Assembly: GCA_043797665.1 (NCBI GenBank)
Contig: JAZDPL010000061.1
Span: 1,065-65,064 of the forward strand
Length of the DNA: 64,000 nucleotides
Origin: Candidatus Omnitrophota bacterium
GTDB lineage: Bacteria > Ratteibacteria > UBA8468 > MWAK01
Direction: 5' to 3'
This document shows positions 31,650 to 51,519 of this stretch, piece by piece. Position numbers and translations under genes: made by a program. Below the pieces are notes generated by a model. The model ran no database searches, was not told the origin of the DNA, and was given only the letters and a program-made list of their open reading frames with translations. The stretch's first letter is position 1. Each line of letters opens with the position of its first letter.

Positions 31650-31847
31650 TCTTTTTCACCCCCCTTCTTACGGAATATCAATAATTTTCCCCATATTTTA
31701 CACCTTATTTTTCGTTTTGTCAAGTGGAGCAAGGAAAAGCACCGCTATCCTGGTGTCAGAATATTGTAAAATTTAGAGATTTCCAGATCTTCCCTAACCT
31801 TCGCAAGGGATAGGGCATGAATCGTCGATTTACATTTACGACAAGCC

Positions 31848-32092
31848 GGGCCCGTGGCTCAGCGGTAGAGCAGCGGACTCATAATCCGTTCAGGTCAATT
31901 TTAATCCGAGGTTTTCTCCCGGGCTAATCTCCAGCAAACCATTGTGTATCAACGGTCTTGTCATTGCGAGCCCGAAGGGCGTGGCAATCTCATCCTTCCC
32001 CATTTTTAACGAATTCTGTCACACACCTGTCACACTCCTGCACCTTTCGTTTCTTATTGAAATCGTTTGACTATCAATGGATTTGAAAGAAA
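31848..32092 (+). repeat. T block copy 1: 43-nt tRNA-Met-like 5' fragment plus ~200-nt conserved tail
   Basis: GGGCCCGTGGCTCAGCGGTAGAGCAGCGGACTCATAATCCGTT gives the acceptor 5' strand, D arm (GCTC/GAGC) and anticodon arm (GCGGA-CTCATAA-TCCGT, anticodon CAT). No T arm or CGGGCCC 3' acceptor follows. The tail is about 85-90 percent alike in copies at 35701 and 50827. Confidence 0.85.
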
Positions 32093-32208
32093 GAAGTGCT
32101 ACTCGACGACACCAAAACCACAACCGCGGGAAAAATCAACTTACCGCGAGCTAAGCAAAACCATCAAAAACTTGACCAGCCAACACTTTCGGCTTGCTTT
32201 GGAAAACA

Positions 32209-33870
32209 TTACCAATCCAATGTATCCTGTTCGTGTTCAAACTTTAAGAGTGGGTAATGGCTTTTAACCGACATTGAAACCGCAGGCTGTGGAGTACCAC
32301 CATCATTTCTTATCAAGACATAAGGAAATCTTATCTGCAGCCACCTCGTACATATTATTTTTGGGTTTCTTGATTCTGGGTATTCACAACCATAGAAAAA
32401 ATCGATTATTTTCGTCTTATTTGCTGTAAATAGATCCGGTATGGTTATTTCTGATAACCAAAAACGAGATGGTAGAATTTTCAGTAACTCTTCCTTGTCG
32501 ATTGAAGTAAAGACATTTTCTTCAAAATCGCTTTTTTCAAGGCTTTCAGCATAATCTTCCTTTGTGGTTAGAAACGTTCTCATAACTATTGGTTTAACCT
32601 TACCAATCCTGTCGATTATTCTATTTGTCCAATCATCCAAAGGTTGTGGGGTCCCTTTACGCGACTCAAGTAGTTCTAATGTGACAATTGTAGCCGCCCA
32701 TTCTGCCTCCTCATGGAGAGTTGTAACTTTGGCAGGGAGTATGATAACTGCATAATTTGCTCTGAATGCAGGATCATATTTTGGTAAAGTTATGCGCTTG
32801 AGTGAGTCTACGGGCAAGCAAAAATACATCCCGAGATTATCATCGTGAATAATAAAATGGTCTACCCAAGCAGAGGTAGACATGAAATAGTCTGTCCGTA
32901 CTGCAGGGGGGTTTGAATATGCGCTTTGTGCCTCCGGTTGCCATTTATCAGAATTCAGTGTGTGTCCAAAGATCGGAACCACATGCAAATCGGAGAGAAT
33001 ATCGTGGGTGGTGAAAATAAGCAAGACTGGACACTTACTTTCTATATATCGGTATATGTATTCGTTATATTCTATATTAGGATTTTCAAAAAAATCTATC
33101 AATCTATATGTTAACCCATATTGATTTAATACTTTTTTAATTTGTTCATTACTGAAAATGAAATCTCCACCTCCGCCCTTTAACTTTACTTGTTCATGAT
33201 CCACTCCAACTATTTTGTTTATGTTTTCGGGCGTAATTAAATCGGCTTCCTCGCGTGTATTGTTCAACACCATACATAGTGAAGCATGCGCACATACGGA
33301 AGTTAGGCTATTCTGCTGACAAAAAAAGGTGCCGGTAATATCAAACTGGAAAGTTTCATCTTTAGATATACTTATTTCCCGCTTAAACTTCTTATGAATA
33401 TGCAAATAATTATTCTGTAACGGTATAGAGGTTCCAGCACCCTTATAATTTCTAATTTTGGGGATGGTAAATAGCGCATTAAAGAGGTAGGATTTCCAAT
33501 TGTTGTCTTTTTTAGGATCTTGAAAATTCATAACTACGGCACTTGCCAAAAAATGTTCACTGCTTAGAGATAATATATCATTGAAGGAGGAAACTCGTTC
33601 AGTTAAAAAAGTAATTCTATATGGCTGGAATTTAATGGGTTGACCAAAGTATTTAATTAAGGCTATACATTCATCACTTATCTCGGCATATTCAGGCGCG
33701 ATTTCTTCAATTACGGCTGTTTCAACGCGCATTTTTCTTGCAAGCGAACATAACCGATGAAAAGCTGAATTATGCGAAAGTCCGGAAGATTCCCCTAAAC
33801 AATGTTGTTTGATGAAAGAATAAAGGGAACAATGCTCCCCTATGGATTCAATCCTTCGATTAAGCACCAT
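32209..33870 (-). CDS. 553-aa C39-like (papain-fold) cysteine peptidase domain protein, paralog of 37861..39519
   Basis: FFCQQNSLTSVCAHASLCMVLNN resembles the Q...C(G/A)xxxLxMVL nucleophile region of C39-like peptidases. Downstream are HVVPIFGHTLNSD and IIHDDNLG (candidate His/Asp). It is colinear with the 552-aa protein over its full length. RBS AGGGGG. Confidence 0.55.
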   Translation of the reverse strand: MVLNRRIESIGEHCSLYSFIKQHCLGESSGLSHNSAFHRLCSLARKMRVETAVIEEIAPEYAEISDECIALIKYFGQPIKFQPYRITFLTERVSSFNDILSLSSEHFLASAVVMNFQDPKKDNNWKSYLFNALFTIPKIRNYKGAGTSIPLQNNYLHIHKKFKREISISKDETFQFDITGTFFCQQNSLTSVCAHASLCMVLNNTREEADLITPENINKIVGVDHEQVKLKGGGGDFIFSNEQIKKVLNQYGLTYRLIDFFENPNIEYNEYIYRYIESKCPVLLIFTTHDILSDLHVVPIFGHTLNSDKWQPEAQSAYSNPPAVRTDYFMSTSAWVDHFIIHDDNLGMYFCLPVDSLKRITLPKYDPAFRANYAVIILPAKVTTLHEEAEWAATIVTLELLESRKGTPQPLDDWTNRIIDRIGKVKPIVMRTFLTTKEDYAESLEKSDFEENVFTSIDKEELLKILPSRFWLSEITIPDLFTANKTKIIDFFYGCEYPESRNPKIICTRWLQIRFPYVLIRNDGGTPQPAVSMSVKSHYPLLKFEHEQDTLDW

Positions 33871-33891
33871 ATTACCCCCTGAAATGCAAAA

Positions 33892-33922
33892 GGCCGACCT
33901 GAAATCTTCGACTAGGTCGGCC
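33892..33922 (-). terminator. hairpin plus U-tract between the small ORF and the 553-aa gene (leaky terminator or attenuator)
   Basis: The minus strand reads GGCCGACCT-13 nt-AGGTCGGCC followed by TTTTGCATTT. The RBS and ATG of the 553-aa gene begin about 10 nt later. Confidence 0.5.
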
Positions 33923-33949
33923 CATGCAAATAGAATAAATCCTTTCTTG

Positions 33950-34144
33950 CTAAAATGTTCTTATAGGCTCTCCTAAAACAAAAGGAGTCTTTTTCGCCTG
34001 TTCCTCAGCAAGCTTAGTCCTTTCAAACTTAGCTTCTTCTTGCTCATTTAGCCCGGTGATGCGATATTCCCTAGAGACACTCTCCCATCCTTTTAGAATG
34101 GAGGTTTCATTATCTCTTCTTGCATCAGTCTTGTCTTTCGACAT
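33950..34144 (-). CDS. 64-aa charged hypothetical protein upstream of the 553-aa gene
   Basis: ORF-track frame. Same strand as the 553-aa gene and 80 nt upstream of it. No recognisable motif. Confidence 0.4.
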   Translation of the reverse strand: MSKDKTDARRDNETSILKGWESVSREYRITGLNEQEEAKFERTKLAEEQAKKTPFVLGEPIRTF

Positions 34145-34306
34145 AGGGCCCCCCTAATTCAACTATCATTTAATGTCAATTGTAAGCGCTTTTTTGAGGT
34201 TTGTCAAGTAGATGCTTGAATAATATAGTAAACCACATCATGGGTAATTGCGTCAAGTGTTACCATATATTAACAATTCCCACTACGTCATTCATCACGT
34301 ATTGCA

Positions 34307-34438
34307 CTAGGGTAAATATTCCGATGGCAATACCCAGAAGTCTTTCTCGACGATTTGCGGACTTATCCGCATTCGTTCGGCGGTCTGCACAAAGTAAAGA
34401 CCCCGTTCTTCACCAGGTAGCCGGATGAACTGGTTCAT
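34307..34438 (-). pseudogene. relic N-terminus of an AbiEii/DUF1814-type nucleotidyltransferase toxin
   Basis: A 43-codon frame reads MNQFIRLPGEERGLYFVQTAERMRISPQIVEKDFWVLPSEYLP*. The (I/L)xEKD(F/Y/V)WV motif about 30 aa from the start is what I recall for AbiEii N-termini. The frame stops after 43 aa and no remainder is present. Confidence 0.35.
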
Positions 34439-34743
34439 GATTTAGGAATTCCCTTCCGCAATAGCCCGCAAATGAGCCCCCACCCAGGCGGCTGCCGATG
34501 TCCAGAAAATTAATTGGAACAACCACCGCACCCCTGCCGAGGCCATAGATTCTGCTAACTATCCTGAAATCAATGCTTATCCATAATTATCGAGGGTGTT
34601 TTTTGTAAGAAAAAATAGCATGTTTTTCTTACATAAATCAGTCCAAAAGCAAACCTCATCGGGTTGGATAGGCATATTTTATCATAACCTCTCCGTAAAC
34701 CTCAATGAAAAACCTATTTTGGGGTGGTTTACGGAACGACGTT

Positions 34744-34940
34744 CAAACCTGCCAGTTAGATAATTTCTTGCCTATTTCCCCTCCCGGGAGTACTACAGGA
34801 ACCGGTAGAATAAACTCATGGTAGAAGTTATATAGGAAATGGTAGGGCGGACTTTTTTGGAGAAAGTGATACATAGAATACCACCCGAGGGGAGATTTAC
34901 GTCAGGATAAAGCGTAGCTACGTAGGATCGCATAGAATTG
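34744..34940 (+). repeat. type C element (~200 nt) copy 1
   Basis: CAAACCTGCCAGTTAGATAATTTCTTGCCTATTT...CTCCCGGGAGTACT...GGTAGAAGTTATATAGG...GATACATAGAATACCACCCGAGGGGAGATTTACG... It is about 85-90 percent alike with 51168-51365, and there is a partial copy at 36855-36935. Confidence 0.85.
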
Positions 34941-35519: not shown

Positions 35520-35630
35520 CCGATCCCCTCTGACAACACAAGAAACCTTTTCAGACAAGCACCCCCACCACCCTGTCGCAATTAATTCCGGTTCTTATTC
35601 TGCTCTGCACTCTAAAGAAGGGTGGTACAG
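35520..35630 (+). repeat. type A element copy A1
   Basis: CCCCTCTGACAACACAAGAAACC...CCCCCACCACCCTGTCGCAATTAATTCC...AAGGGTGGTAC. The flanking ACCACCC/GGGTGGT arms enclose the GTCGCAATTAAT core. Confidence 0.8.
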
Positions 35631-35648: not shown

Positions 35649-35945
35649 ATCCAGTCAAGGGATTATTAGTATGGAAAATATGATATAATACAGGGCAGCC
35701 GGGCCCGTGGCTCAGCGGTAGAGCAGCGGACTCATAATCCGTTAAGTTCAATTTTAATCTGAGGTTTTCTCCCGGACTAATCTCCAGCAAACCATTACGT
35801 ATCAACGGTTTGTCATTGCGAGCCCGAAGGGCGTGGCAATCTCATCCTTCCCTCATTTTTAACGAATTCTGTCATACACCTGTCATACTTTTTCACGTCC
35901 CTGTTTTCGTTGAAAATCGTTTGCTACCAAGGGATTCGGAAAGAT
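35649..35945 (+). repeat. T block copy 2 (promoter region, tRNA-like head at 35701-35743, conserved tail)
   Basis: Its 43-mer is identical to copies 1 and 3. The upstream 52 nt is shared with copy 3 only. Confidence 0.85.
35681..35689 (+). promoter_or_regulatory. extended -10 box TGATATAAT, 11 nt upstream of the tRNA-like head (copy 2)
   Basis: An exact TGnTATAAT match, conserved at the same distance in copy 3. Confidence 0.55.
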
Positions 35946-36854: not shown

Positions 36855-36935
36855 AAAGATTTTTTGAAAGTGGATAGGTACCACCCGAAGGTAGATTTAC
36901 GCCAGGACAATGCGTAGCTACGTAAGGATTGCAAG
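36855..36935 (+). repeat. type C element, partial copy (3' portion)
   Basis: GGTACCACCCGAAGGTAGATTTACGCCAGGACAATGCGTAGCTACGTAAGGATTGC aligns with the 3' ends of C1 and C3. Confidence 0.7.
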
Positions 36936-36974: not shown

Positions 36975-37073
36975 CCGGTCCCCGCTGACAAGCACAAAAA
37001 CCTTTCCCGGCAATAACCCCACCATGCTGTCGCAATTAGTTTGGACTGCAAACCTTGACCGGATTCTGCTGAC
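36975..37073 (+). repeat. type A element copy A2
   Basis: CCCGCTGACAAGCACAAAAACCTTTCCCGGCAATAACCCCACCATGCTGTCGCAATTAGTTT...CCTTGACCGGATTCTGCTGACC. Confidence 0.8.
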
Positions 37074-37345
37074 CCCCAGAATCCCTTCCCTGCGGGCAGG
37101 TCCCACCCACCATACCTCCCTCTCCCCTGAGTTGCTGTTCAGGCTGAACAGCAACTGCCGACACCGGGATGCCCTACCCCACCCCCCCAGTTTCGTTTTC
37201 TTCCTTTCTAACTTGCGATTGGCGGCGATATCTCCCCAGAACTGGTGCTTCTTCCATTACCTAAGTCAAAAAAATCAGCAGGAAGCGATTTTGAAAAGCA
37301 AATTCAGGTATAAGGTTCTATTATTGATTCCCTGCAATTGACCTT
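37074..37345 (+). repeat. type B element (~265 nt) copy B1 with a 12-bp hairpin at 37130-37156
   Basis: CCCCAGAATCCCTTCCC...CCCACCATACC...CCCCTGAGTTGCTGTTCAGGCTGAACAGCAACT...TTTCTAACTTGCGATTGGCGGCGATATCTCCCCAGAACTG...GGAAGCGATTTTGAAAAGCAAATT.AGGTATAAGG. About 90 percent alike with 57267-57530. Confidence 0.85.
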
Positions 37346-37404: not shown

Positions 37405-37495
37405 TGCTCCGGCAACTACCCCACCATCCAGTCGCAATTAGTCGCTGATAACGAATTGACTACCCAAAGAGAAGGTGGTATCCTTTAATGTGAGT
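37405..37495 (+). repeat. type A element copy A3 with promoter module
   Basis: CCCCACCATCCAGTCGCAATTAGT...TTGACTACCCAAAGAGAAGGTGGTATCCTTTAATGTG (TTGACT-17 nt-TATCCT). Confidence 0.8.
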
Positions 37496-37571
37496 AGATT
37501 CCACAGATTAGTAGAAACTTGACTATTTTTTCATTAATGTGCTACTATAATTAGAATTTCGAAATCTGCGT

Positions 37572-37835
37572 GTGAGAAAATCAAATCTTTTAACAATGGA
37601 CGATAATCTTCTGAATATTTGTAGAAATGGGGGGCATATGGGATTGTTGAACAGCAAAACCATTGATACGTCTAACGGCAAAGAAGATAATCTTCGCGAA
37701 CGTATCTCTCTTTGCTCCAGTAAGAACACTTTTCAGAGAAAAGGTGAATTTGTTAACGATGATGTCCCAAATTTTCTGAAAGACCTAGAGCGATTTCTTA
37801 AAAGATCCAAAATGAGTCACTTGAAAATTCCTTAA
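37572..37835 (+). CDS. small hypothetical ORF upstream of the 552-aa gene
   Basis: ORF-track frame starting at an alternative codon, with an internal ATG at codon 9. TTGACT (37519-37524) and TACTAT (37543-37548) promoter-like boxes lie upstream. Coding status is uncertain. Confidence 0.3.
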   Translation: MRKSNLLTMDDNLLNICRNGGHMGLLNSKTIDTSNGKEDNLRERISLCSSKNTFQRKGEFVNDDVPNFLKDLERFLKRSKMSHLKIP

Positions 37836-37860: not shown

Positions 37861-39519
37861 ATGCCCGCCAATTTGACTTCTGTTCGAACTGTAGAAAGTA
37901 CTAATAGTACATCTCTCCAATTAGTGGAGCAGCCATTTTCTTTCTTTAACTATTTGGAAAGCGTAGATGACCTTAGAGGACTTCTTCCACTTCATCGGAT
38001 TTGTAGTCAGGCTCGAAAACTAGGCGCCCAAACAATAATAACAGAGCATCTTCGTATATCAGACGACGTAAAAGAAGAAAATGCTGACATTACCAAAAGA
38101 TTTTCACGGTTCTCAGAAAGTCGAGTATGGCGGTTGAGTTTCTTTGAAGAAAAAATTTCTTCGTTGAAAGAACTAGATAAAAATTCCAACAAGGGTTTTA
38201 TCGGTTATGCTGTTGTTAAAACGGACATTCTTCCACCTCCACTGGGACGTAGGACACGTGTTCTTGAATCAGTCATACTTAAAAGCCAACATGAAAATAA
38301 TTACATAAGAAATGCACCTAAATGGAAATGTTGTGTGGCTGGTAGAACGTTCACAGTGGAAGGCTATTTATATGCACAGCAAAATGGAATAACCAATATT
38401 TGTGCACATGTTGCCCTCCGAACGGTTGCTGCGCGTTTCCACCAAAATGGCGATATATCCTATCGCGAAATTAATGACTTGCTCGGCATTAATCACATTT
38501 CCAAGAAGATTGGCTGGGGTGAGAATAAGGGTTGGAATGAAAACGGCGGATTGGAAACCTGGGAAATTTGTAAAGTGCTTGAAACAATTGGTGCAGAATG
38601 TCTTAGAGCAACTTATAAAAATCCTATAACAGAAGGGAATTCTGTCCCATTCCAAAAATTATTGTATGGAAGTATTGAATCAGGCTATCCTGCAATTCTA
38701 TGTTTTGCGATACAGAAAGAGCGTCATGCAATTCCTGTTTTTGGGCATACTTTCAATGAAGATATTTGGGTTCCCAGTGCCGAAGCTTTGTACTTTAAGG
38801 TTGGACCTGGAACTCGATATATACCAAGCGAACTTTGGACGAGTATGTTTATTACTCATGACGATAATTTTGGTTCAAACTTTTGCATTCCACGCCACTA
38901 TCTTTATACTCGATTAACATGTGGCCGTGATCAACAGTCGGAGTCTCCTTATCTATGCCCAATTCAACAGGAACGAGTTTTTTATGTAATAGCCACATTC
39001 CCTAAACTGGTAAAAGTTAATTCGGTTCAAGCCGAGGTTATAGCAATAGATTACCTTCGGAGCATCCTCGAAAAATTTAGCCGACCTACATCCGACCCAT
39101 GGATCAAGCGTTTAAGAATTTATGCAACTAATGGATCTATTGTGCTTCGACCTATTCTTATTAAGGGTTTAAAAGAATATGGGGAGCATTTGAGGAAGGT
39201 ACGCAACTGGGAAGGAGATAGGTTCAATAATGATGTCACAAAAACTTTCATTCAAAGCCCCGGGGATGACTTCTTTTGGATGGTGGAAATTTCAGTTCCT
39301 GAATTATTTTCCGCGAATAACCGCAAACTGGGGGAGATATTATTGAAAGCGCAGGTTCCCGTTGCTACAACAAGGGACTTTGGCAATTTTTTATTAACCC
39401 GCATTCCTGGCCATTTCGTTTTCTATGTAGGGGGTGAGATGTCTAATCCAGAGTATCGTTATGTCCCTTGTGGTTTAGACAACCACATTGAACTTTATAG
39501 GTGTGAAAAAAACTCCTGA
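37861..39519 (+). CDS. 552-aa C39-like (papain-fold) cysteine peptidase domain protein, paralog of 32209..33870
   Basis: YAQQNGITNICAHVALRTV (Q...C nucleophile region), HAIPVFGHTFNED and ITHDDNFG. Shared N-terminal motif HRICSQARKLG (vs HRLCSLARKM) and C-terminal FWMVEISVPELFSANNRKL (vs FWLSEITIPDLFTANKTKI). Confidence 0.55.
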   Translation: MPANLTSVRTVESTNSTSLQLVEQPFSFFNYLESVDDLRGLLPLHRICSQARKLGAQTIITEHLRISDDVKEENADITKRFSRFSESRVWRLSFFEEKISSLKELDKNSNKGFIGYAVVKTDILPPPLGRRTRVLESVILKSQHENNYIRNAPKWKCCVAGRTFTVEGYLYAQQNGITNICAHVALRTVAARFHQNGDISYREINDLLGINHISKKIGWGENKGWNENGGLETWEICKVLETIGAECLRATYKNPITEGNSVPFQKLLYGSIESGYPAILCFAIQKERHAIPVFGHTFNEDIWVPSAEALYFKVGPGTRYIPSELWTSMFITHDDNFGSNFCIPRHYLYTRLTCGRDQQSESPYLCPIQQERVFYVIATFPKLVKVNSVQAEVIAIDYLRSILEKFSRPTSDPWIKRLRIYATNGSIVLRPILIKGLKEYGEHLRKVRNWEGDRFNNDVTKTFIQSPGDDFFWMVEISVPELFSANNRKLGEILLKAQVPVATTRDFGNFLLTRIPGHFVFYVGGEMSNPEYRYVPCGLDNHIELYRCEKNS

Positions 39520-39766: not shown

Positions 39767-40663
39767 TTACTGTTCACCGCGGAGATTATCCAAATGTTTC
39801 CGGAGTTTTTCCTCAACTCGTGTTTTGCCACCGATAGAGTTATCGTAGAATATCGTTCTATTTGCAGCTATATCAAAGGGTAGGGATTCTCGCTTCTTGT
39901 CGCAAAGCATGACGGTTTTCTTCCTAATAGCATGCGAATAGCCTATTTCATAATAAACATTGGGATTATTCGGCGTCACATCTGCAATAACTAAGGACGC
40001 TTCACTTATCGATCGTGTTATGTCTTGGATTATCAGGTTGGAGGTGTACATGTCGTCAGCCCTCTTGACTGTGTATCCAAATGCTTCACATGTTGGCTTA
40101 ATGACTTCTCGGTATAGATCATCAAACTCGGGCGAAAATTGCATTATTACGAATGCCGTCTGAGATGTCTTGTCCATCTTGACGTTTCGAAAGTGTACAT
40201 ATGATTTACCTTGAGCAAACAGACCTATCTGCGAATCTACGATATTGAGTTCTGCCTGGCTAATCACTACGCCATGAATTGATAATTTTACGGCTGCACC
40301 AGTCACCTTAATAGTAACCGGAATCCAGTCGTCTTTCCTTAGGACGGTACCGAAACCCGCAAGGTTGATGGCTCTCCACTTCCCGCTTGCGAGGGATGCA
40401 ATTCCGTATGGTGTTTTCATTACATTCAAACCAACAAAAATCTGCTCGGCAGTCTGGTGATTTAGTACGACTTGGGCACAACAAGTCTCTTCTCCTATCT
40501 GGGCATCGAAGGAAATAGTCCCATTTTCGAAGTACTGGTTACATTTAACTACGCCGAAGGGTATTAGTCCAGGGCCGAGAGGTTCCGTAATCTCCGGCGT
40601 AAAAATCAAGTCGTTCTCTTGTATATCAAACTTCCCAATTATTGGGACCCATTGTATATTCAT
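39767..40663 (-). CDS. fusion protein: N-terminal LamG/DUF1080-like beta-sandwich plus C-terminal TIR-like/nucleoside 2-deoxyribosyltransferase-like Rossmannoid domain
   Basis: The C-terminal half reads AFVIMQFSPEFDDLY...VKRADD...SLVIADVTPNNPNVYYEIGYSHAIRKKTVML. This matches the strand/helix pattern with a conserved Glu (YEIGY) typical of NDT/TIR-like effector domains. The N-terminal half ends in ...GLFAQGKSYVHFRNVKM, like DUF1080 jelly-rolls. Confidence 0.55.
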   Translation of the reverse strand: MNIQWVPIIGKFDIQENDLIFTPEITEPLGPGLIPFGVVKCNQYFENGTISFDAQIGEETCCAQVVLNHQTAEQIFVGLNVMKTPYGIASLASGKWRAINLAGFGTVLRKDDWIPVTIKVTGAAVKLSIHGVVISQAELNIVDSQIGLFAQGKSYVHFRNVKMDKTSQTAFVIMQFSPEFDDLYREVIKPTCEAFGYTVKRADDMYTSNLIIQDITRSISEASLVIADVTPNNPNVYYEIGYSHAIRKKTVMLCDKKRESLPFDIAANRTIFYDNSIGGKTRVEEKLRKHLDNLRGEQ

Positions 40664-41062: not shown

Positions 41063-41300
41063 TATTTACTCTGGCATGCCCATTTCACCGAATCGGCAAG
41101 TTCGAGTCTGGTCCCGATAGAAAACATCGGGATGCCACGACAGCAATAGAACATACGTTAAACCGTGTCAGGGTGGCGGAGGGAGACGACGTTAGAACCT
41201 ACCTAGTGGACAATTTAGCCTTGCCCACCATTTTTAACTACCATACTCCACCCTATTTGCTTATTATTGTACCACATTTTACGTTCTTCCCTTGACTGGC

Positions 41301-41652
41301 CCCCAAAAACCCTTCCCTGTGGTTAGGTCACACCCACCATACCTACTTTCCTGAATTACTGTTGAGGCTCAACAGTAACTTATGCCAAACCCTCTCAGAG
41401 AACAACCTCTCCCGTGCCCTTTACCACCACTACCCCCTGGAACAACGTTCACAAGTTCACCAAAGCGACAGAAACCAGTGGCTGATAGTGGAATGCCTTA
41501 CCCACCATGCAATTAATTTGGCTTTAGGATGTTGCCCCTGGAACGTAGGAAGAAGTACAAGCTGGGAGGAAGAAACTTTACTCAAACAAACTACCTGGGC
41601 CAGTATCAAACCGCAAACTTGAAATCAGGTGATTGTGTCCATTGAAATCTGA
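41301..41652 (+). repeat. diverged type B copy (B4, hairpin 41356-41378) followed by type D element (D1, ~41546-41652)
   Basis: CCCCAAAAACCCTTCCCTGTGG...CACCCACCATACCTAC...GAATTACTGTTGAGGCTCAACAGTAACT... The D part AGGAAGAAGTACAAGCTGGGAGG...GAAATCAGGTGATTGTGTCCATTGAAATC aligns with 54946-55050. Confidence 0.75.
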
Positions 41653-41654: not shown

Positions 41655-44600
41655 TTAGGCTACTGCCAATTGGCGAATCTCACTCAACAGCGAGACAAGT
41701 TGGTCAACCTGCGTTAGCGTGAACAGGCCTTCGGGACCCCGTGGGCTGATGTCAGTAAAAGGTGACTCGTAGAGCCGAGCTGTTTCCAGGACACCATGCT
41801 CCGTCAAGTGGTTGATGATGAGGTTGATAAACTCAATCTGGTTCGCGGTGGAGATCTTGCCTGATAAAAATTGATCGAAGGCGCGCTTGGCAGCTTCTCG
41901 ATCCAGTCCAACAAGGGAGCGGATAAAGAGACCAAGTCCTCTGCTTTCTTGCTTGGCGCGGTTCAGGTCCACCGATGTGCCGACGCCAGCCTGAAGCATG
42001 ATCCGCTCCAGTTCTTCGAGGTCTGTGGCCGTCAGCGGTTTATTCCATCTCAGTTTGTGGATAGTCAGATGATTCTCGTGTTCCCGTAAGAACTGACGCG
42101 CTTTAGCTCGAAACCGCTCGAAATCCGCGCCGGCGCCGAAACCGGACAACTCCACTGCGGCTTCTTTACCCATCTGATCCTCAAAGTCCGTATACACGTA
42201 CTTCCGCTTTGTCTTTTCGATGAGTTTCACCAATGTGCGCAGTCGCTTGCGGGCGGTTTCGAGAATGGGAATGGTTACGTCTTGCCAGTAGGCATCGGTC
42301 TGAATCTCCAGAATCAGTAACATTTGCTCGCGCACCATCGGGATGCTCGACTTTTCCTCCAACAGCCCCGCGATGTACCGCACTTGATCCCGTGACCTCT
42401 CAAAAAATGGATCGGTCCGCAGCAGCATCAGTTGCAGCCGCAGCATTAGCAGATCAAAGCGTTTCGCCTCCTCGTCCTCGTCCATCAGTTCACTTGGTAG
42501 GCCGGCAACGTTCCGCGCCAGTTCGTCGAAGTTTTCGCTTTTCAGCGCCGTCCACGCTTCAGGCTTCGCGTATTTCTCTACCAGTCGGCGCCGGGGGCGG
42601 ACGATGAAGTTGTCCACGTTCATCGCGGCTACCTGCCCCCGAAGCAAAGCAACCATTTCATGCCGAATTTCTTGCTCCGTGAATGTGTCGCCGTAGGATA
42701 TCATTTGTTCCTGCACGTGATCCGGGGCACCGGCAGCCGGCGCGCCCAGTTTCCGGTCCAGTTCGCCGATTAACTCCAGCCGCGTCGTGAAAAGCTTCTT
42801 CCCGAGCGATTCGCCCAAACTGCCTTCGGTCGTCTCCGGATTCTGGCTAAAGAACTCTAGGTTTTGACAGTAGTCGAACAGGTAGAAAAACTCCTTGGGC
42901 TTACCCGGCCCGAACAAATCCGGCCGCAACCGCGTACCACGTCCCACCATCTGCCAGAATTTCGTTTTCGAGCGCACCAGTTTGAAAAACACGAGGTTTA
43001 CCACCTCCGGGATATCGATGCCCGTGTCCAGCATATCCACGGAGATCGCGATGTGCGGCGCCTTGTCAGGTAGGGAGAAGTTGTCGATTAGGCTCTGCGC
43101 GTATTCAACCTTAAAATCGATCACCCGAGCGAACTCGCCCTTGTAGTGCGGGTAGTTGGCGTTGAAGCGCTCCGCGATAAACTCCGCATGGGCGTGGTTC
43201 TTGGCAAAAATGATGGTCTTTCCCAACCGGTCACCGTCGGACACCTTAAGACCTCGGGTCAACAGATGTTCGAGCACCTTATCTACGGTGTCCTTGTTGA
43301 AGAGCCACTTGTTGACCGCTTCGGCCTCCACGTGTTCGGGCACTTCGCCATCTTCACCCCACTCGAGCGCGTCCCACTGTTCCTTGTCTTCCTCGGATAG
43401 TTGGTCGTAGCGGATGCCCTCGCGCTGGAACTTGAGCGGCACGGAAACGGCCTTCGGGGGTACAAGGAACTTGTCATTTACCGCCTCTTCCAGTCCGTAA
43501 ACGTCTGTCGGCACACCCGTCTCCAGCTCGAACAAGCCATATGTGTTGTGGTCCACCTCGTCTTTCGGCGTCGCCGTCAGACCGACCAGCAGCGAGTCGA
43601 AGTAGTCGAAAATGGCGCGGTATTTCTGGTAGACGGAACGGTGCGCTTCGTCGATGATGACGAGGTCGAAGTGGCCCACGCCGAACTTCTTCTGCCCGTC
43701 GCGCGTCTCGTCGATGAGCCGCATCATCGTCGGGTAGGTAGAGACATACACCCGTCCCTCGGTGTTCTTCTCGGTCACCAGATTAACCGGGGACGACGCG
43801 GGCAGGTGCTTCTTGAAAACCCCCACCGTCTGGTTCACCAGCGCCACCCGGTCCGCAAGAAAGAGCACGCGCTTGACCCAGTTGCAGCGCATGAGCAGGT
43901 CGCACAGCGCGATTACGGTTCTGGTCTTACCCGCGCCGGTCGCCATAACCACCAGCGCTTTGCGGTCGTGGTCTTTTTCGAAGGCTTCGCCGATACGCCG
44001 GATCGCCCGCGTTTGGTAGTAGCGTTCGACGATGTCCGGATTGATCTCCGCGCCGGCCAGCGAGCGCCGCGTGCTGCGCCGCTGGGTCAACAGTTCCAGA
44101 TCCGCCTTTTTTAGGAAACCCTGCACCGGGCGCGGCGGATAGTTCGCGTCATCCCACAGCCAGTGCTCGTATCCGTTGGAGTAGAAAATTACAGGTCGCT
44201 GCCCGAACTGCTTCTCCAGACAATCCGCATAGAGTTTGGCCTGCTGCTGACCCACGCGCGCGTCACGTTTCGTGCGTTTGGCCTCTACTACGGCGAGCGG
44301 TTTGCCATCATCACCCCATAGCACGTAGTCCACAAAACCTCTGCCTTCGTTGTTGGGCATACCGCCGACCTCGAACTCGCGGTCCTGCGGTTTATCAAGC
44401 GCCCAGCCGGCTTCTTTAAGCAGCAGGTCGATGAAGTAATCGCGGGTCTCGACCTCTGAATAGTCGTGCGTATCGGGATAGACGGCGTTCGCGGCCTTGG
44501 TTTTAGCCACTTCTTCGCGCAGCCGCTTCAGTTCTTCATTGAGCGCGGCCTTATCCGAGAGCAGTATCGATAACCGGGTATCCTTCTCGGCGAGTTGCGC

Positions 44601-45074
44601 GGCCAGTGTCTGTAACTGCGTCAGCGTCTGGGGCGGGATGGGCGAAATTTTGGGCAGTAGGTTCGCATCAAAAACCAGTTCATCGGCGGTCTTGGCGTTC
44701 CGTGCATAGGTACGGGTTAGCCAGAAGCAGAAGTGGAACAGTTCGCGTACCGCCGTCAGGGCATCAAGCTGCTGCACCGGCCTGGTGCTGTGGACGGCCT
44801 GATTGCCTAATTCTTTAATAACCCGCGCCTTGTTGAAAACCGCCGGCCCGACCACCTGCCGGAAAGTGGGCTCGTGAATGAGCGCATTCAGGTGGTCCTG
44901 ATAGGGTAAAGTGAGCGCCCTGTCGTTCCGGTAGAGCCACGCCACAGCGAGTTCCAGCGCGCGCCGGGCGTAGAAACAGGCCGCCCGCGCATCGGGATAG
45001 GCCAGCGCTTCCGCTTTGGACGCGGCATCGTGCAATTCGGGCCATTCAACTTTGAGAAAGGTGAAGTTTGACAT
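41655..45074 (-). CDS. hsdR: type I restriction enzyme R subunit
   Basis: 1139 aa with SF2 helicase motifs MATGAGKTRT (Walker A) and VIIDEAHRS (DEAH). An N-terminal nuclease region and a long helical C-terminus are present. It belongs to an operon with hsdM and hsdS. Confidence 0.95.
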   Translation of the reverse strand: MSNFTFLKVEWPELHDAASKAEALAYPDARAACFYARRALELAVAWLYRNDRALTLPYQDHLNALIHEPTFRQVVGPAVFNKARVIKELGNQAVHSTRPVQQLDALTAVRELFHFCFWLTRTYARNAKTADELVFDANLLPKISPIPPQTLTQLQTLAAQLAEKDTRLSILLSDKAALNEELKRLREEVAKTKAANAVYPDTHDYSEVETRDYFIDLLLKEAGWALDKPQDREFEVGGMPNNEGRGFVDYVLWGDDGKPLAVVEAKRTKRDARVGQQQAKLYADCLEKQFGQRPVIFYSNGYEHWLWDDANYPPRPVQGFLKKADLELLTQRRSTRRSLAGAEINPDIVERYYQTRAIRRIGEAFEKDHDRKALVVMATGAGKTRTVIALCDLLMRCNWVKRVLFLADRVALVNQTVGVFKKHLPASSPVNLVTEKNTEGRVYVSTYPTMMRLIDETRDGQKKFGVGHFDLVIIDEAHRSVYQKYRAIFDYFDSLLVGLTATPKDEVDHNTYGLFELETGVPTDVYGLEEAVNDKFLVPPKAVSVPLKFQREGIRYDQLSEEDKEQWDALEWGEDGEVPEHVEAEAVNKWLFNKDTVDKVLEHLLTRGLKVSDGDRLGKTIIFAKNHAHAEFIAERFNANYPHYKGEFARVIDFKVEYAQSLIDNFSLPDKAPHIAISVDMLDTGIDIPEVVNLVFFKLVRSKTKFWQMVGRGTRLRPDLFGPGKPKEFFYLFDYCQNLEFFSQNPETTEGSLGESLGKKLFTTRLELIGELDRKLGAPAAGAPDHVQEQMISYGDTFTEQEIRHEMVALLRGQVAAMNVDNFIVRPRRRLVEKYAKPEAWTALKSENFDELARNVAGLPSELMDEDEEAKRFDLLMLRLQLMLLRTDPFFERSRDQVRYIAGLLEEKSSIPMVREQMLLILEIQTDAYWQDVTIPILETARKRLRTLVKLIEKTKRKYVYTDFEDQMGKEAAVELSGFGAGADFERFRAKARQFLREHENHLTIHKLRWNKPLTATDLEELERIMLQAGVGTSVDLNRAKQESRGLGLFIRSLVGLDREAAKRAFDQFLSGKISTANQIEFINLIINHLTEHGVLETARLYESPFTDISPRGPEGLFTLTQVDQLVSLLSEIRQLAVA

Positions 45075-45115
45075 TATGCGCCTCTCAGAACCAACTCCCT
45101 GAATATAGTCCGCCT

Positions 45116-46150
45116 CTATTTCAATTCTTCTTGTATCGGCATTTTCAATGCGTTTGCGTCAGGAAGTTTTCCCGCCAAATATCTGGGAAGTTTCTTTGTA
45201 AGATAGTACTCAGCAACACCCACGGGCTTTTTGACACTGCGTAAGGCATACTCAACCACGATGTTATCCTTATCCGCACACAGAATAATACCTATTGACG
45301 GATTCTCATCTTTCAACTTCACTTGTTCATCCAACAGATGCAGGTAAAAATCCATTTTACCGGCATATTCGGGTTCGAACTTACCGGTCTTAAGCTCAAC
45401 TGCCACGAGACATTTCAATTTGCGGTTGAAAAACAGAAGATCAACGAAATATTCGTTATTTCCCAGCGTGAGCCGGTATTGATTACCGAGAAATGAAAAT
45501 CCGTAACCAAGCTCCAGAATAAACTGTTTGATTTTCTCCACAAGCCTTTTTTCAAGATCCCGCTCCAAGACCGGTTTGGTAATGCCGAGAAAATCAAGGT
45601 TGTAAACGCTTTTTATGGCTTCATCCGCCTGTTCGGCGAGATGGACAGGCAAGGCTTTAGGAAAATTGTGGGTTTTTTGTCTCTGGCTTAATGCGTATGC
45701 GTTGGCTTTTATCTGATTGAGAAGCACATTCCTTGACCAGCCAAAATCACGGGAAGATTTAATATAATATTCCCGTTCGTCATCAGCGGAAATCTTCTCC
45801 ATAATCAGCAGATTATGCCCCCATGGAATTTCTGCAACAAGCTGTTGCAGAAATGGCTTGTCTTTGTATTCCTCATATAATCTGCGCATGTTCCACACAT
45901 TTCTCTCCGAAAACCCTTGCACCTCTGGAAAGGACTTTTGTAAGTCGCGGGCAAGAACCTCAACAACATTGTCACCCCACTTGTATTTTTGCTGACGCTC
46001 AACGATGTTTTTACCGATATCCCAGTATAGATTTATAAGCTCTTTATTGACCGATCTTATCGCCTGAATCCGCGCTGTAAGAATGCGAGATTTAATTTCA
46101 TTTAAGAATTCAATGTATTCTTTACCCGCTATGTTTTGTCGAGTAGACAT
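45116..46150 (-). CDS. DUF1016/YhcG-like PDDEXK nuclease-fold protein
   Basis: 344 aa. The N-terminus Y..FLNEIKSRILTARIQAIRSVNKELINLYWDIGK and the C-terminal core FVDLLFFNRKLKCLVAVELKTGKF (D...ExK) are as I recall for YhcG-family proteins. Confidence 0.75.
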   Translation of the reverse strand: MSTRQNIAGKEYIEFLNEIKSRILTARIQAIRSVNKELINLYWDIGKNIVERQQKYKWGDNVVEVLARDLQKSFPEVQGFSERNVWNMRRLYEEYKDKPFLQQLVAEIPWGHNLLIMEKISADDEREYYIKSSRDFGWSRNVLLNQIKANAYALSQRQKTHNFPKALPVHLAEQADEAIKSVYNLDFLGITKPVLERDLEKRLVEKIKQFILELGYGFSFLGNQYRLTLGNNEYFVDLLFFNRKLKCLVAVELKTGKFEPEYAGKMDFYLHLLDEQVKLKDENPSIGIILCADKDNIVVEYALRSVKKPVGVAEYYLTKKLPRYLAGKLPDANALKMPIQEELK

Positions 46151-46170
46151 CTTTTAAATCCTCAAAGGAG

Positions 46171-47895
46171 TCATGCCCCCGCCGCTTTCCGGATGAATTC
46201 ATTCATGCACGTGACCAGCGCCTCTCGCCTGAAGCGCAGAAACTCCCGGTAATTTTCCATCTTCCACAACTCCGGCGTACATGGCACCCGTTGGGCGTCC
46301 AGCGCCGCCTGTCCCCGTGCCTCGATGATGCCTGGTAGATACGCGCCCGGTTCCTTGTTGCTCAACTGGCGGTTGGTCTGGCCGGTGATAAAAGCCATAT
46401 TTGCGATTTCATTGATCTCGCCTGTCTCGAAATCGCGCTTCTTGAGTAAAGACTTAGGAAAAATATGGTGCCACTGGATGAAATGCATCCGGCCTTGATT
46501 GGTCAGAGAAAGACCCAGCCCACTGAACCAGTCCTTCGCGCCGCCGTCTTTAAGGGCGAGGTAGGCCAACGAAAACAAGGGGCTGTTTGCGCCGCGCCCG
46601 GCAAGATCCGTCGTCTCGATATGCAAGCGTCCGAACTGTTGTTTCACCGGTTCAAGCAGCGTCGCGATGTCGCCGGAACGGAAGATTATGGCCAAATCCT
46701 CATTGAGCAGTGATTCGGTGGAACCGCGCGAGTAACGACCACGCGCGTTGGCAATTAGCAACCAGTACAAGAGTGCGTTCTGCTCCGCCTGCGTAAGTTT
46801 GTTGTTTTTGGCGCGACTGACGGCGGCCAGCGCAAGGATGAACATCGGGGATGAAAGCAGCGATTCATCTTCGATACCGGCGTTCGTCCGCAGAAAGTTG
46901 ATTGCATAGCGCAGTCCTTCCTGGGCCTCATCCCAGCCCGTTTTTAGCCGTGCCACGGACGTGCCGCCTACAATTCGAAAAAGACATTGCTTGGTTGCAA
47001 ACACTACGATGGACCGCACCAGCAGACCGAGGTCGAGCGTGAACCACCTTTGCTCACACTCCTCCTGAAACTCTTCGAGATGTTTGAGCAGGTTCGGCCA
47101 GCGCGACGTCATCTGGGCCAGCGCGAGGTCCGACGAACGCAACTTGGCGCCCAACGAGTTCACGCGGACGAAGATCTCCGTCACCTCCTCGTATTTCATC
47201 GCCCGTTCCAGCACGTGGACCACATACGGATAGCTCTTAATCTGCCGCAACTTGGTTAGCCGGTCGGAGTATTTCTGGTAGCGCGGATCTTTGAATGACT
47301 CAATACCCGCTTTTTCCAAGATAGCGGTATCACTGGACTTAAATACTTCACTCACCGACACCCAGTTGGGCAGTGCTTGCAGGTTCCGGCTGGCCACCAC
47401 GAACGTGCGCCGGTTCAGCCGCTCCACCAATCCCTCGTCGGAGTCGCCATTATCGTCGGCTTCGTCCACCATCTCGTCGTCTGGAGTCAGTAGCGATTCC
47501 TCATCGCTAACGACCTCGACGACCTCGGTAGGCGGGCCCTCCGGATGTTCCAGGTTGAATAGAATTTCAATCGGCCGCTTGCGACCGCGTACTGTTACCG
47601 GTTCGCCATTGAGCACAGCCGTCAATGAAGTCAGGCGTTGCTGTCCGTCGAGCAGCAGTTTGCGTCCGGCGAATGCCGTCGTGTCCTGCGGAATGGCGAA
47701 ATCGTGGGTCGGAATAGGCTCATCCGTTTCCCACATCAGGATCGAGCCACTGGGATAACCGCGATACAAAGAATCAAATAGGTCGCGTACACGCGTCGCC
47801 CGCCACACGTAATGGCGCTGGATTTCGGGCAACTGCAACTCCCCCCGTTTATACATATCAACCAGAGTGCTGATTGGAATGTTCTGTTGTTGCAT
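46171..47895 (-). CDS. DUF262 (ParB-like) plus DUF1524/HNH-like protein, GmrSD-type modification-dependent nuclease family
   Basis: 574 aa with N-terminal LPEIQRHYVWR and LLLDGQQRLTSL (DUF262 hallmarks). The C-terminal HHIFPKSLL...NEIANMAFITGQTNRQLSN is a His-Me finger-like motif. Confidence 0.8.
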   Translation of the reverse strand: MQQQNIPISTLVDMYKRGELQLPEIQRHYVWRATRVRDLFDSLYRGYPSGSILMWETDEPIPTHDFAIPQDTTAFAGRKLLLDGQQRLTSLTAVLNGEPVTVRGRKRPIEILFNLEHPEGPPTEVVEVVSDEESLLTPDDEMVDEADDNGDSDEGLVERLNRRTFVVASRNLQALPNWVSVSEVFKSSDTAILEKAGIESFKDPRYQKYSDRLTKLRQIKSYPYVVHVLERAMKYEEVTEIFVRVNSLGAKLRSSDLALAQMTSRWPNLLKHLEEFQEECEQRWFTLDLGLLVRSIVVFATKQCLFRIVGGTSVARLKTGWDEAQEGLRYAINFLRTNAGIEDESLLSSPMFILALAAVSRAKNNKLTQAEQNALLYWLLIANARGRYSRGSTESLLNEDLAIIFRSGDIATLLEPVKQQFGRLHIETTDLAGRGANSPLFSLAYLALKDGGAKDWFSGLGLSLTNQGRMHFIQWHHIFPKSLLKKRDFETGEINEIANMAFITGQTNRQLSNKEPGAYLPGIIEARGQAALDAQRVPCTPELWKMENYREFLRFRREALVTCMNEFIRKAAGA

Positions 47896-47897
47896 AG

Positions 47898-49142
47898 TTA
47901 TAGGTCTCCTTTAAACGCGCGGTGCTGGAGGGAAGCGAAGAGTGAATCCAACTTCGCCAACGACACCCGCTGCTTCGCTTTCAATCGTTCCACCGTTTTC
48001 ACCTGCCCGGCAAACTCACGTTGTAGTGGAAACGGAGGGACCGAAACCTGTAGCTTGCTCAAGTTGCCTCTGGAGATCCTCTCACGAGTCGTACCGGTAG
48101 CGTGTCGGGCAACCTGCTTTCGAAACGAGTCGCTGTTGATGCATGAAACGAGCCAATAAATGTCGGGGCCGCCTTTCGACGGACGAATGATGCACACATC
48201 AACGACTGTCACGCACTCCTGATGTTCACCGGGGAAGATACACGCTCGTCCCAGTGGGTCAGGCATTCGGGCAACCAAGACATCGCCCGTGCGAAGGAAC
48301 GTGCAACGAAGATCTGCCGCCTTTTCGGGAGTTAAAAAACGAGCGGATTTGTTGAGGTAGATGCCATCACCAACATCAGCGAGCTGTATGAGCCTTACGG
48401 CTCCGTCTGGGTTTTGGTCCTTCGATTCAACCCAATCGCCGTCAACGAACACTTCTGCATTTTCTAGAACTTTAGCGAATGGCTTTGCCTCCCAATGCTT
48501 CGGATTCGTCACCGGATCACCAAACATCTCAAGAAAAATTGCTTGGGTGAGGATATCAAGTTGGGCGAGGGCATGGCGACGCTTGGCTCGCAACGCTTCC
48601 GCCCGGTCCAGTACCTCTGCAATCCGCCGCTGCTCCGCCAAGGGGGGGAGGGGAATACGCAGTTGCTTCAATAAACCGCTATTGAAGCCCGCCATAATGG
48701 CGCCGTGGCACTTAGCTTTTATCTGTGCGACAACGAGCGGGCAGAAATTGAGCATCCACGATACGTAAGGTGGCCACGCTGCATGTGTATCGAGGCTAAT
48801 CTTGATTAGATGACTTGAGATAATGGATTTCTCCAAGTCGTCTGGGACGACACACGTCCGTCCTACTGTTCCCATGTTCGTGACAAGGAGGTCCCCAGGT
48901 TTGACTGTGTATTGGCTGAGCTCGCGGAATTTCGGTTCAGGGATGTACTTCCGTTTTTCAGACACCAATTCGTTAGGAAAAACATCTTCAATCCCAAGTA
49001 CTCTGACACCAACTTCAGAATACTCGTGCTTCTTCAGCGCGCTGCCGAAAGGGCCAATCCGGATGGCGCTTTTCTCTGGAGCCGCGATTTGTTCCATCGT
49101 TGGGAAGCGCCAACCAACCGGCGGTTCGTAGGGGAGTCTCAC
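47898..49142 (-). CDS. hsdS: type I restriction enzyme specificity subunit
   Basis: 414 aa with two target-recognition halves, each followed by the conserved helix (LPPLAEQRRIAEVLDRAEALRAKRR and VPPFPLQREFAGQVKTVERLKAKQR). It overlaps hsdM by 4 nt. Confidence 0.9.
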   Translation of the reverse strand: MRLPYEPPVGWRFPTMEQIAAPEKSAIRIGPFGSALKKHEYSEVGVRVLGIEDVFPNELVSEKRKYIPEPKFRELSQYTVKPGDLLVTNMGTVGRTCVVPDDLEKSIISSHLIKISLDTHAAWPPYVSWMLNFCPLVVAQIKAKCHGAIMAGFNSGLLKQLRIPLPPLAEQRRIAEVLDRAEALRAKRRHALAQLDILTQAIFLEMFGDPVTNPKHWEAKPFAKVLENAEVFVDGDWVESKDQNPDGAVRLIQLADVGDGIYLNKSARFLTPEKAADLRCTFLRTGDVLVARMPDPLGRACIFPGEHQECVTVVDVCIIRPSKGGPDIYWLVSCINSDSFRKQVARHATGTTRERISRGNLSKLQVSVPPFPLQREFAGQVKTVERLKAKQRVSLAKLDSLFASLQHRAFKGDL

Positions 49143-50772: not shown

Positions 50773-51150
50773 GAATCCAGTCAAGGGATTATTAGTATGG
50801 AAAATATGATATAATACAGGGCAGCGGGGCCCGTGGCTCAGCGGTAGAGCAGCGGACTCATAATCCGTTCAGTTCAATTTTAACCAGAGGTTTTCTCCCG
50901 GGCTAATCTCCAGCAAACCATTACCTATCAACGGTCTTGTCATTGCGAGCCCGAAGGGCGTGACAATCTCATCCTTCCTCATTTTCAGCGAATTCTGTCA
51001 CACACCTGTCACACTTTTTCACGCCTCCATAATCAGCAGATTATGCCCCCATGGAATTTCTGCAACAAGCTGTTGCAGAAGAAGTTTGACATTATGCGTC
51101 TCTGTTTTTTGCTGAAGTTCGTTTAGTATCAAGGGATTTGAAAGAAATCA
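50773..51150 (+). repeat. T block copy 3 (promoter region, tRNA-like head 50827-50869, tail interrupted by a 79-nt patch at 51025-51103)
   Basis: It has the same 43-mer and the same upstream 52 nt as copy 2. Relative to copies 1 and 2, its tail carries an insertion made of two pieces of the adjacent R-M locus. Confidence 0.85.
50807..50815 (+). promoter_or_regulatory. extended -10 box TGATATAAT, 11 nt upstream of the tRNA-like head (copy 3), divergent from hsdM
   Basis: An exact TGnTATAAT match at the same spacing as in copy 2. Confidence 0.55.
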
Positions 51151-51167
51151 GCATAACGGGGCGACAT

Positions 51168-51365
51168 CCAAACCTGCCAGTTAGATAATTTCTTACCTAT
51201 TTTTCCCTCCCGGGAGTACTCCCGGATCCGGTAGAATGCCCCCATGGTAGAAGTCATATAGGAATGGTGGGACGGACTTTTTGGGGAAAGTGATACATAG
51301 GATACCACCCGAGGGGAGATTTACGCCAGGCGTGGACGTACGCAAAGCAGGAACGCATAGATTTT
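51168..51365 (+). repeat. type C element copy 3
   Basis: It aligns with 34744-34940 along its whole length. It contains the perfect 16-nt palindrome CCGGGAGTACTCCCGG. Confidence 0.85.
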
Positions 51366-51384
51366 CTCCGGGGGTTGTCTCACC

Positions 51385-51518: not shown

Positions 51519-51519
51519 T

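Follow-up and report, generated by a model that had tools for sequence, protein, structure and literature searches.

What two divergent genes of about 550 codons encode, and how a single genome came to carry both, is the question raised by a 64,000-nucleotide stretch of DNA from a Candidatus Omnitrophota bacterium (assembly GCA_043797665.1, contig JAZDPL010000061.1, positions 1,065 to 65,064; this whole stretch is referred to as the window). A preliminary description of the window had proposed that the two products, here called peptidase A and peptidase B, are paralogues with a C39-like peptidase core, that each sits in its own cassette, and that the pair is under diversifying selection. The analysis reported here supports the peptidase core and the cassettes, places A and B in different old clades, and adds to that description a small partner gene upstream of each peptidase gene and, in relatives, a link to ubiquitin-like protein (Ubl) conjugation operons. 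Coordinates of all features are given in the table.

On their sequences A and B are homologues beyond doubt, because BLASTP aligned them colinearly at 27% identity over 488 residues (E 2e-40), a similarity far beyond chance. This agrees with the earlier observation of colinearity at low identity, and all five of the motifs then quoted were found in the alignment: from the N-terminus into the core HR(I/L)CS.ARK, QQN....(I/V)CAH and H(A/V)(I/V)P(V/I)FGHT(F/L)N.D, and further on (I/F)(T/I)HDDN(F/L)G and FW(M/L).EI(S/T)(V/I)P(E/D)LF(S/T)AN.

An AlphaFold2 model of A, built from a 30-sequence alignment, had a mean predicted local distance difference test (pLDDT) score of 86 and a predicted template modelling (pTM) score of 0.88, and divides the protein into three: residues ~1-170 and ~382-552 form N- and C-terminal alpha/beta domains on either side of a C39-like papain-fold core (~170-381). 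A Foldseek search of the Protein Data Bank (PDB) with this model ranked ComA of S. mutans first (5xe8; E 8e-4, probability 1.0, target-TM 0.67), followed by the UFM1-specific protease UfSP2 (3oqc), LahT150 with its leader (6mpz), PCAT1 (7n87/6v9z) and the C39-like domain of HlyB (3zua). C39 peptidase domains were the sole consistent structural matches (probability 0.99-1.0, target-TM 0.57-0.67), and the match to UfSP2 was weak (target-TM 0.27). A structure search had been named in the preliminary description as a check on the peptidase assignment, and for A it returned a C39-like papain fold and not a non-peptidase fold. All matches below E 0.1 fell on the C39 core; the flanking domains, which had been left unassigned, had no significant match in the PDB, and the model had none among the viral structures of BFVD.

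Sequence profiles were far less informative for the window proteins themselves. Neither A nor B matched Pfam (even at E 10), NCBIfam or PADLOC, no peptidase family was recovered when A, B and 28 clade-A relatives were compared with Pfam at E 10 (nothing reached the PF03412 or PF13529 threshold), and sequence searches of the PDB with A alone and with the family profile gave nothing relevant. P0173, a homologue from the clade of B, did exceed the cutoff of 24 for Pfam Peptidase_C39_2 (PF13529), scoring 26.8 bits (E 8.7e-6) over its Cys-to-His region, and a local hhalign comparison of the core with ComA sequences from PDB entries gave a weak alignment (E 0.067) that paired Gln173 with Gln11, Cys181 with Cys17 and His289 with His96. 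Taken with the structural model, these results support a C39-like papain-fold cysteine peptidase core, a divergent representative of an already known superfamily.

Conservation of individual residues was assessed in 89 non-redundant full-length relatives from genomes and metagenomes. Six residues (Cys181, His289, His296, Asp301, Asp334 and Asp335 in the numbering of A) are kept in all 89, so that the proposed Cys, His and Asp passed the alignment check that had been named for them, while Asn175 is found in 87/89 and Gln174 in 83/89; one database member of the family has Ser in place of the candidate nucleophile. By analogy with ComA (HYYVVYG...LIIGDP) the candidate triad of A would comprise Cys181 as nucleophile, His289 as base and Asp334 or Asp335 as third member, with Gln174 and Asn175 as candidates for the oxyanion hole. 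In the model Cys181 lies at the N-terminus of helix 181-190, with Asn175 preceded by Gln173 and Gln174, and His289 lies near the beginning of strand 287-298 in an H-x3-V-x-G context that resembles HYYVVYG of ComA. Between the candidate His and Asp of A is a family-specific insertion of approximately 30 residues that contains the invariant His296, Asp301 and Trp303. The C-terminal domain carries a near-invariant family motif of its own, W..E(L/I)S.PELF.AN.RK, in which Glu476 is conserved in 88/89 and Lys489 in 81/89 relatives.

A papain-like core need not belong to a protease, as the same fold and catalytic residues occur in the acyltransferase BtrH and in phytochelatin synthase, and a transferase, deamidase or transglutaminase-type activity was weighed for this reason. 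BtrH_N has been described as a close relative of C39 (PMC10318531), phytochelatin synthase and Peptidase_C70 gave weak Pfam matches at the Cys region of B-clade homologues, and His296, Asp301 and Trp303 together with the two unassigned domains could form a different active site. True C39 peptidase domains are nevertheless the best structural matches, the glycine tail of the partner protein (described below) resembles a peptidase site, and the surroundings of family genes show no conserved genes for acyl carriers or small-molecule pathways. We consider a non-proteolytic core improbable.

The family is large. When 1.84 billion cluster representatives were searched with a family profile, 2,092 proteins fell at E <= 1e-3 and, of these, 709 also at E <= 1e-30 (all counts refer to clusters at 50% identity), nearly all of 500-570 residues, and every named record is a 'hypothetical protein' from a metagenome-assembled genome. 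The taxa represented include Planctomycetota, Verrucomicrobiota, Omnitrophota, Kiritimatiellae, Desulfobacteraceae, Nitrospirota/Thermodesulfovibrionales and Syntrophorhabdus; searches of PLSDB plasmids, GenBank phages and IMG/VR found no member, and A itself had no exact entry in the assembly collection. Average-linkage clustering places A and B in separate deep clades. The nearest relatives of A (48-50% identity) are in Planctomycetota and Verrucomicrobiota, and those of B reach 60% identity, the named members of its clade coming from metagenome-assembled genomes of Thermodesulfovibrionales, Nitrospirota and Syntrophorhabdus. Because the two proteins belong to different old clades, each with closer relatives in other phyla, these sequence relationships support a split that is older than the arrival of either gene in this genome, and hence separate acquisitions. 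Diversifying selection, which had been suggested from the presence of two diverged copies, finds no footing in this pattern, and on the clade evidence duplication in situ with diversifying selection was rejected; the annotation can be corrected from a locally diversifying pair to independent acquisitions of a mobile cassette. Split or truncated family genes were found in five further loci (L021, L025, L029, L033 and L036), where they are probable pseudogenes, and the module is therefore often lost.

At nearly all related loci a same-strand open reading frame of about 60 codons ends approximately 0-110 nt 5' of the large gene or runs a little way past the called start of that gene; A and its partner are 25 nt apart, and B and its partner 79 nt. 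This partner gene is found in every clade and is conserved as a pair with the peptidase gene. A GGGGGG run resembling a Shine-Dalgarno sequence precedes the ATG of both window partners (by 4 nt at position 37638 for A). The gene is usually overlooked by gene callers, and where it is annotated its locus tag directly adjoins that of the peptidase (GWN67_24890 for the partner and GWN67_24895 for the peptidase). A profile was built from clade-A partners only, because a mixed alignment of the small proteins came out poor, and its search returned only 29 database entries.

The clade-A partners align well among themselves and share the pattern M.F...RK.LL....K.I.F.NDDVP.(F/Y)L..L..FE..S(R/K); the partner of A shows the clade motif F.NDDVPNFL..LERF..S+ and terminates in ...LKIP at the column occupied by Gly in other clades. 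Across clades, a MAFFT alignment revealed a common plan in which a variable N-terminus is followed by an amphipathic helix, S-(K/R)-K and finally hydrophobic-hydrophobic-(L/V)-G. Most clades add 2-8 variable residues after this Gly, often as G-x-P: the partner of B has hydrophobic-hydrophobic-L-Gly and a six-residue tail with Pro in second place (FVLG/EPIRTF), and other examples are IILG/KPLS, FFIG/ELKK and VSVG/SY. The tails (GPIK, ELKKSC and TY are further instances) vary strongly between relatives. Partners of clade A and of an Omnitrophota clade stop at the Gly column, the last residue being K, S, R, G or P. AlphaFold modelled the partner of A, at pLDDT 71.6 and pTM 0.34, as a pair of helices (12-29 and 42-59) whose ends are free and which form no stable globular fold; this suggests that the protein does not have a beta-grasp fold and probably folds only on binding.

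From this arrangement we propose, as the likeliest reading, that the family forms a mobile two-gene conflict module whose peptidase docks or cleaves the tail of its partner, a reading on which our own confidence is evenly divided. Each copy would be an autonomous module made up of a two-helix protein of about 60 residues followed by a cytosolic three-domain cysteine endopeptidase. The amphipathic C-terminal helix of the partner would dock on the peptidase, as the helix of a double-glycine leader does on a C39 domain, and the extended tail would enter the active site. In most clades, that of B included, cleavage would fall on the C-terminal side of the conserved Gly (...F-V-L-G/E-P-I...), and in clade A the C-terminus of the partner, already ending at the cut position, would occupy the active site much as a bound product does. 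Because the tail would be either cut at Gly or product-like, the partner could serve as cognate substrate or pseudosubstrate and also as regulator of the peptidase. The catalytic site is always intact, which implies further targets, cellular or from an invader, that the peptidase would cut after displacement or loss of the partner.

A C39-like enzyme that cuts a small precursor after Gly might instead have the release of the 2-8-residue C-terminal peptide as its purpose, in the manner of the maturation of a ribosomally synthesised and post-translationally modified peptide or of a signalling peptide. Leader peptidases of the C39 type cut after a Gly-Gly that ends an amphipathic helix (6mpz, 6v9z; PMC10318531), and the high variability of the post-Gly tails (from EPIRTF and KPLS to GPIK, ELKKSC and TY) would suit a bioactive or signal peptide. 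Against such a role, there is no tail to release in the partners of clade A and the Omnitrophota clade although their peptidases are intact, the partner site has a single Gly and not Gly-Gly, genes for an exporter, a modification enzyme or a receptor are not conserved near family genes, and sequences read by eye showed no obvious hydrophobic N-terminal signal in partner or peptidase. Peptide maturation thus seems very unlikely.

The conflict-module reading draws also on the company that family genes keep. The window copies lie near type I restriction-modification, GmrSD and TIR-like genes. Neighbours of relatives include an SLFN-type helicase, GmrSD, AAA_15/21, Type ISP, DUF499/DUF1156/SNF2 and integrases, and PADLOC models matched near them comprise PtuA, AriA, mad3/8, HEC-01A and PD-T4-6; the neighbourhoods are suggestive of islands. 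Modules would travel as small cassettes within islands of defence genes and mobile elements and behave after the manner of toxin-antitoxin or abortive-infection systems. Cassette mobility, island context, copy-number variation and decay all fit a toxin-antitoxin or defence conflict system. A role of the family as effector or immunity protease is plausible. In one relative (L001, positions 9626-13049) the 3.4 kb directly 3' of the family gene contains only short overlapping open reading frames and no called gene; a non-coding RNA is one possible explanation, a decayed element another.

Several observations weigh against the conflict-module reading. It gives no role to the invariant His296, Asp301 and Trp303, and the triad itself is a candidate placed from sequence and secondary structure. 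We infer the docking of the tail in the active site, and count that against the reading as well. Partners of clade A end in K, S, R, G or P and not consistently in Gly, so cleavage cannot be the common function, and the active-site motifs are nearly identical between tail-bearing and tail-less clades. The partner has no recognisable DNA-binding antitoxin domain, a scan of A, B and the B partner against PADLOC-DB 2.0 at E 1 gave no match, and many flanks of relatives are housekeeping genes, the defence context being a qualitative one.

A different association emerged from the relatives of B. In all of the first three B-clade loci examined (3/3), an operon encoding E1, E2 and Ubl proteins adjoins the module together with an XRE/CapH-like helix-turn-helix (HTH) gene, and with an M78 peptidase gene in one; the three operons are of different types, namely a JAB-E1 fusion with E2 and Ubl, a Multi_ubiq operon with Prok-E2_E, JAB and ThiF, and a Bil operon with BilD_N. 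After a metagenome scan, E1 operons were sought by phmmer with the B-clade operon proteins as queries, and loci with enough flanking sequence were counted. Two clades had an E1 operon next to the module, in no fewer than five arrangements and in 10 of their 16 well-flanked loci: 3/5 loci of the B clade and 7/11 of a second clade (clade 2) distinct from those of A and B. In clade 2 the E1 gene lies tail-to-tail after the peptidase gene, at a distance of 5-47 nt in seven loci and of 5-7 nt in six of them. No E1 operon was found in the ~35 well-flanked loci of all other clades, clade A included, and the 64-kb window contains neither E1 nor E2. Pfam typing of the E1-linked loci gave ThiF in 8/8, Prok-E2_E in 5/8 and HTH_3 in 6, and beta-grasp Ubl genes were present only in these loci.

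By definition 6E/Bub operons, which carry Prok-E2_E, always include BubE, a DUF6527 serine peptidase thought to be deconjugating, and the biological role and targets of Bub- and Bil-type systems are still open (PMC11601596). Because the defined Bub operons carry BubE and DUF6527 was not seen among the recurrent Pfam families of the E1-linked loci, the C39-like module stands where, in these variants, a peptidase is missing. In both clades the module is fixed beside 6E/Bub-like or Bil operons, and for that reason the peptidase there probably acts in that pathway too.

The association could be taken further, to a family of dedicated bacterial Ubl-pathway peptidases that process Ubl precursors or remove Ubl from its targets in place of BubE, with the small protein as regulator or adaptor and with stand-alone copies serving E1 and E2 proteins encoded elsewhere in the genome. 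The second rank of UfSP2 among the Foldseek matches, the operons of ThiF E1, Prok-E2_E, Multi_ubiq and JAB beside 10/16 loci, seven of them tail-to-tail, and the absence of DUF6527 from the recurrent families of these loci, where every defined Bub operon has its deconjugating BubE (PMC11601596), speak for such a role. It is harder to reconcile with the window and the ~35 loci of the remaining clades, where E1 and E2 are absent, with a strictly conserved neighbour that is a small helical protein and not a beta-grasp Ubl, and with the JAB peptidase that the linked operons already possess. We regard it as unlikely, with a real if minor claim on the data. Still more speculative, and very improbable in our estimation, is the idea that the helical partner of about 60 residues is itself a new non-beta-grasp protein modifier, its tail trimmed after Gly by the peptidase, in the way that UFM1 is trimmed by UfSP and Atg8 by Atg4, and then conjugated by the E1 and E2 of Bub/Bil-like operons that lack BubE; stand-alone modules such as that of A would then be derivatives with a pre-trimmed partner.

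Loci with Prok-E2_E, a ThiF E1 (in some cases fused to JAB) and an XRE/CapH-like HTH gene are L039, L040/L060, L041/L049, L073, L074, L078, L086/L088 and L091-L094, and these E1/E2 operons may represent an undescribed Bub-like variant. RepB, ArdC and RadC genes are also found in L088, L091 and L092, which indicates a plasmid or integrative and conjugative element context.

Within the window, the cassettes proposed for the two copies could be delimited. B lies between imperfect direct repeats and forms a 2.6-kb insertion (~32120-34730) in sequence that is uninterrupted at 51095-51225, and A, together with a TIR-like gene, lies between copies of a 49-nt repeat. The segment that holds A and B (~32-41.5 kb) has a GC content of 0.38-0.41, and its flanks 0.49-0.57. 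Restriction-modification and TIR-like defence genes were found nearby, as described, and so were the tRNA-like blocks near both genes. The latter are three copies of a ~200-nt block (31844-32043, 35697-35896 and 50823-51022; 79-93% identity) that score 29-30 bits against the Rfam tRNA model and are not called as tRNA by ARAGORN. At the start of each is a sequence resembling tRNA-Met in which the acceptor 5' strand, the D arm and the CAT anticodon arm are intact and 29 unrelated bases stand in place of the T arm; the blocks could be decayed copies of an attachment site or a tRNA-like element.

Table. Features of the peptidase modules, their cassettes and the surrounding island (positions in the window).
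Feature	Position	Strand	Details
Peptidase A	37861..39519	+	552 aa; reading frame open over exactly this interval
Partner of A	37638..37835	+	65 aa from ATG at 37638; mechanical open reading frame starts at GTG 37572
Nucleophile region of A, NGITNIC	38383..38403	+	codons checked; Asn175 (candidate oxyanion residue) 38383-38385; Cys181 38401-38403
His motif of A, HAIPVFGHTFNED	38725..38763	+	His289 (candidate catalytic His) 38725-38727
HDDN of A	38857..38868	+	Asp334/Asp335, candidate third triad member; end of strand 327-331
C-terminal-domain motif of A, (W)MVEISVPELFSANNRK	39283..39330	+	residues 475-490; Trp473 just before the interval
Peptidase B	32209..33870	-	553 aa; three-part layout as in A; reading frame open over this interval
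Candidate residue Cys193 of B	33292-33294	-	
Candidate residue His296 of B	32983-32985	-	
Candidate residue Asp343 of B	32842-32844	-	
Partner of B	33950..34144	-	64 aa; ends ...KKTPFVLG/EPIRTF
B cassette, left direct repeat	32101..32119	+	~19 nt, imperfect
B cassette, right direct repeat	34731..34749	+	~19 nt, imperfect
49-nt repeat upstream of A and TIR-like unit	37069..37117	+	86% identity to 41296-41344
49-nt repeat downstream of A and TIR-like unit	41296..41344	+	pairs with 37069-37117
Pieces of 50823-51530	32049-32119, 34731-34924, 35563-35601, 36879-36924, 37017-37055, 37419-37500		
TIR-like gene	39767-40663	-	298 aa; convergent to A; PADLOC TIR effector, E 2.9e-14
Type I restriction-modification operon	41655-50677	-	HsdR (N-terminal DUF4145), HsdS, HsdM

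A 700-nt stretch 5' of the open reading frame at 51520-52065 (50823-51530) recurs piecewise between the cassettes; in appearance, the island is a row of cassettes that have entered copies of a single intergenic sequence. One of these pieces (37456-37500, matching 51486-51530) contains a TTGACT promoter-like site just 5' of the partner gene of A. No integrase was found in the ~28-57 kb part of the window. A relic at 51025-51103 joins a piece of a DUF1016/YhcG nuclease gene (45797-45865) to the first codons of hsdR and the sequence upstream of them (45063-45085), and points to an earlier rearrangement of the restriction-modification cassette. In the operon itself, a GmrSD-family nuclease and the DUF1016/YhcG PDDEXK nuclease are encoded between hsdR and hsdS. 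The 298-aa TIR-like protein has a C-terminal domain that resembles TIR and nucleoside 2-deoxyribosyltransferase domains, and its N-terminal half has no assignment. This gene and the DUF1802-like and lipoprotein-like open reading frames of the window were considered as conserved partners of the family and rejected, as none co-occurs with it; for the TIR-like gene a single distant co-occurrence (L014) was noted.

A previously unannotated family of 709 to ~2,000 clusters thus gains a fold, a candidate triad, an obligate partner gene and a testable hypothesis of a tail in the active site. Its papain-fold enzyme could supply the peptidase step of Bub/Bil-like operons without BubE, and may be a missing part of bacterial Ubl systems. 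Neither the three-domain architecture, nor the mini-partner with its dichotomy of Gly tail and truncated tail, nor the junction with Bub/Bil operons had a match in Pfam, NCBIfam or PADLOC, and we met no description of them in a limited literature search.

Among known systems, the closest likeness is to the C39 and C39_2 peptidases, with which the family shares a papain-like fold, a Cys at the N-terminus of a helix with Gln/Asn 6-8 residues before it, and a His in an H-x3-V-x-G strand. A further likeness is the small helical protein that accompanies it, which has an extended tail as well as an amphipathic helix and in most clades places Gly at the putative P1 site. The family differs from these peptidases in being a predicted cytosolic protein of 550 residues with additional N- and C-terminal domains and a ~30-residue insertion after the His strand (with His296, Asp301 and Trp303), and in being neither fused to nor located near an ABC transporter: A and B have no transporter domain, and no exporter is conserved nearby. 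C39 substrates have a double-glycine leader; partners of most clades carry a single conserved Gly after the amphipathic helix and the partner of A none, and almost nothing lies beyond the putative cut site.

UfSP1 and UfSP2 (C78) and Atg4 (C54) trim a few residues after the C-terminal Gly of a small protein. The partners of most clades similarly have Gly and a short tail, and two clades have E1, E2 and Ubl neighbours. In contrast, the catalytic residues of UfSP and Atg4 follow the order Cys-Asp-His with an Asp-Pro-His box (PMC10318531), whereas the family has the order Cys...His289...Asp334 and no such box, and its partner is predicted to form two helices and not a beta-grasp Ubl. The resemblance to Bub and Bil systems is one of position: in two clades the module stands at the operon end, the place of BubE in Bub operons (PMC11601596), and abuts operons with a ThiF E1 (in some cases JAB-fused), Prok-E2_E, a Multi_ubiq-type Ubl and an XRE/CapH-like HTH gene. 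BubE is a Ser-His serine peptidase of a fold unrelated to that of the family, and E1 or E2 neighbours are lacking for both window copies and throughout clade A. Type II toxin-antitoxin systems differ from the module in that its partner has no recognisable DNA-binding fold and its 550-residue enzyme is far larger than typical toxins; the likenesses are a small gene closely 5' of a larger enzyme gene on the same strand and conserved with it as a pair, divergent copies in one genome, location in an island, and frequent pseudogenes.

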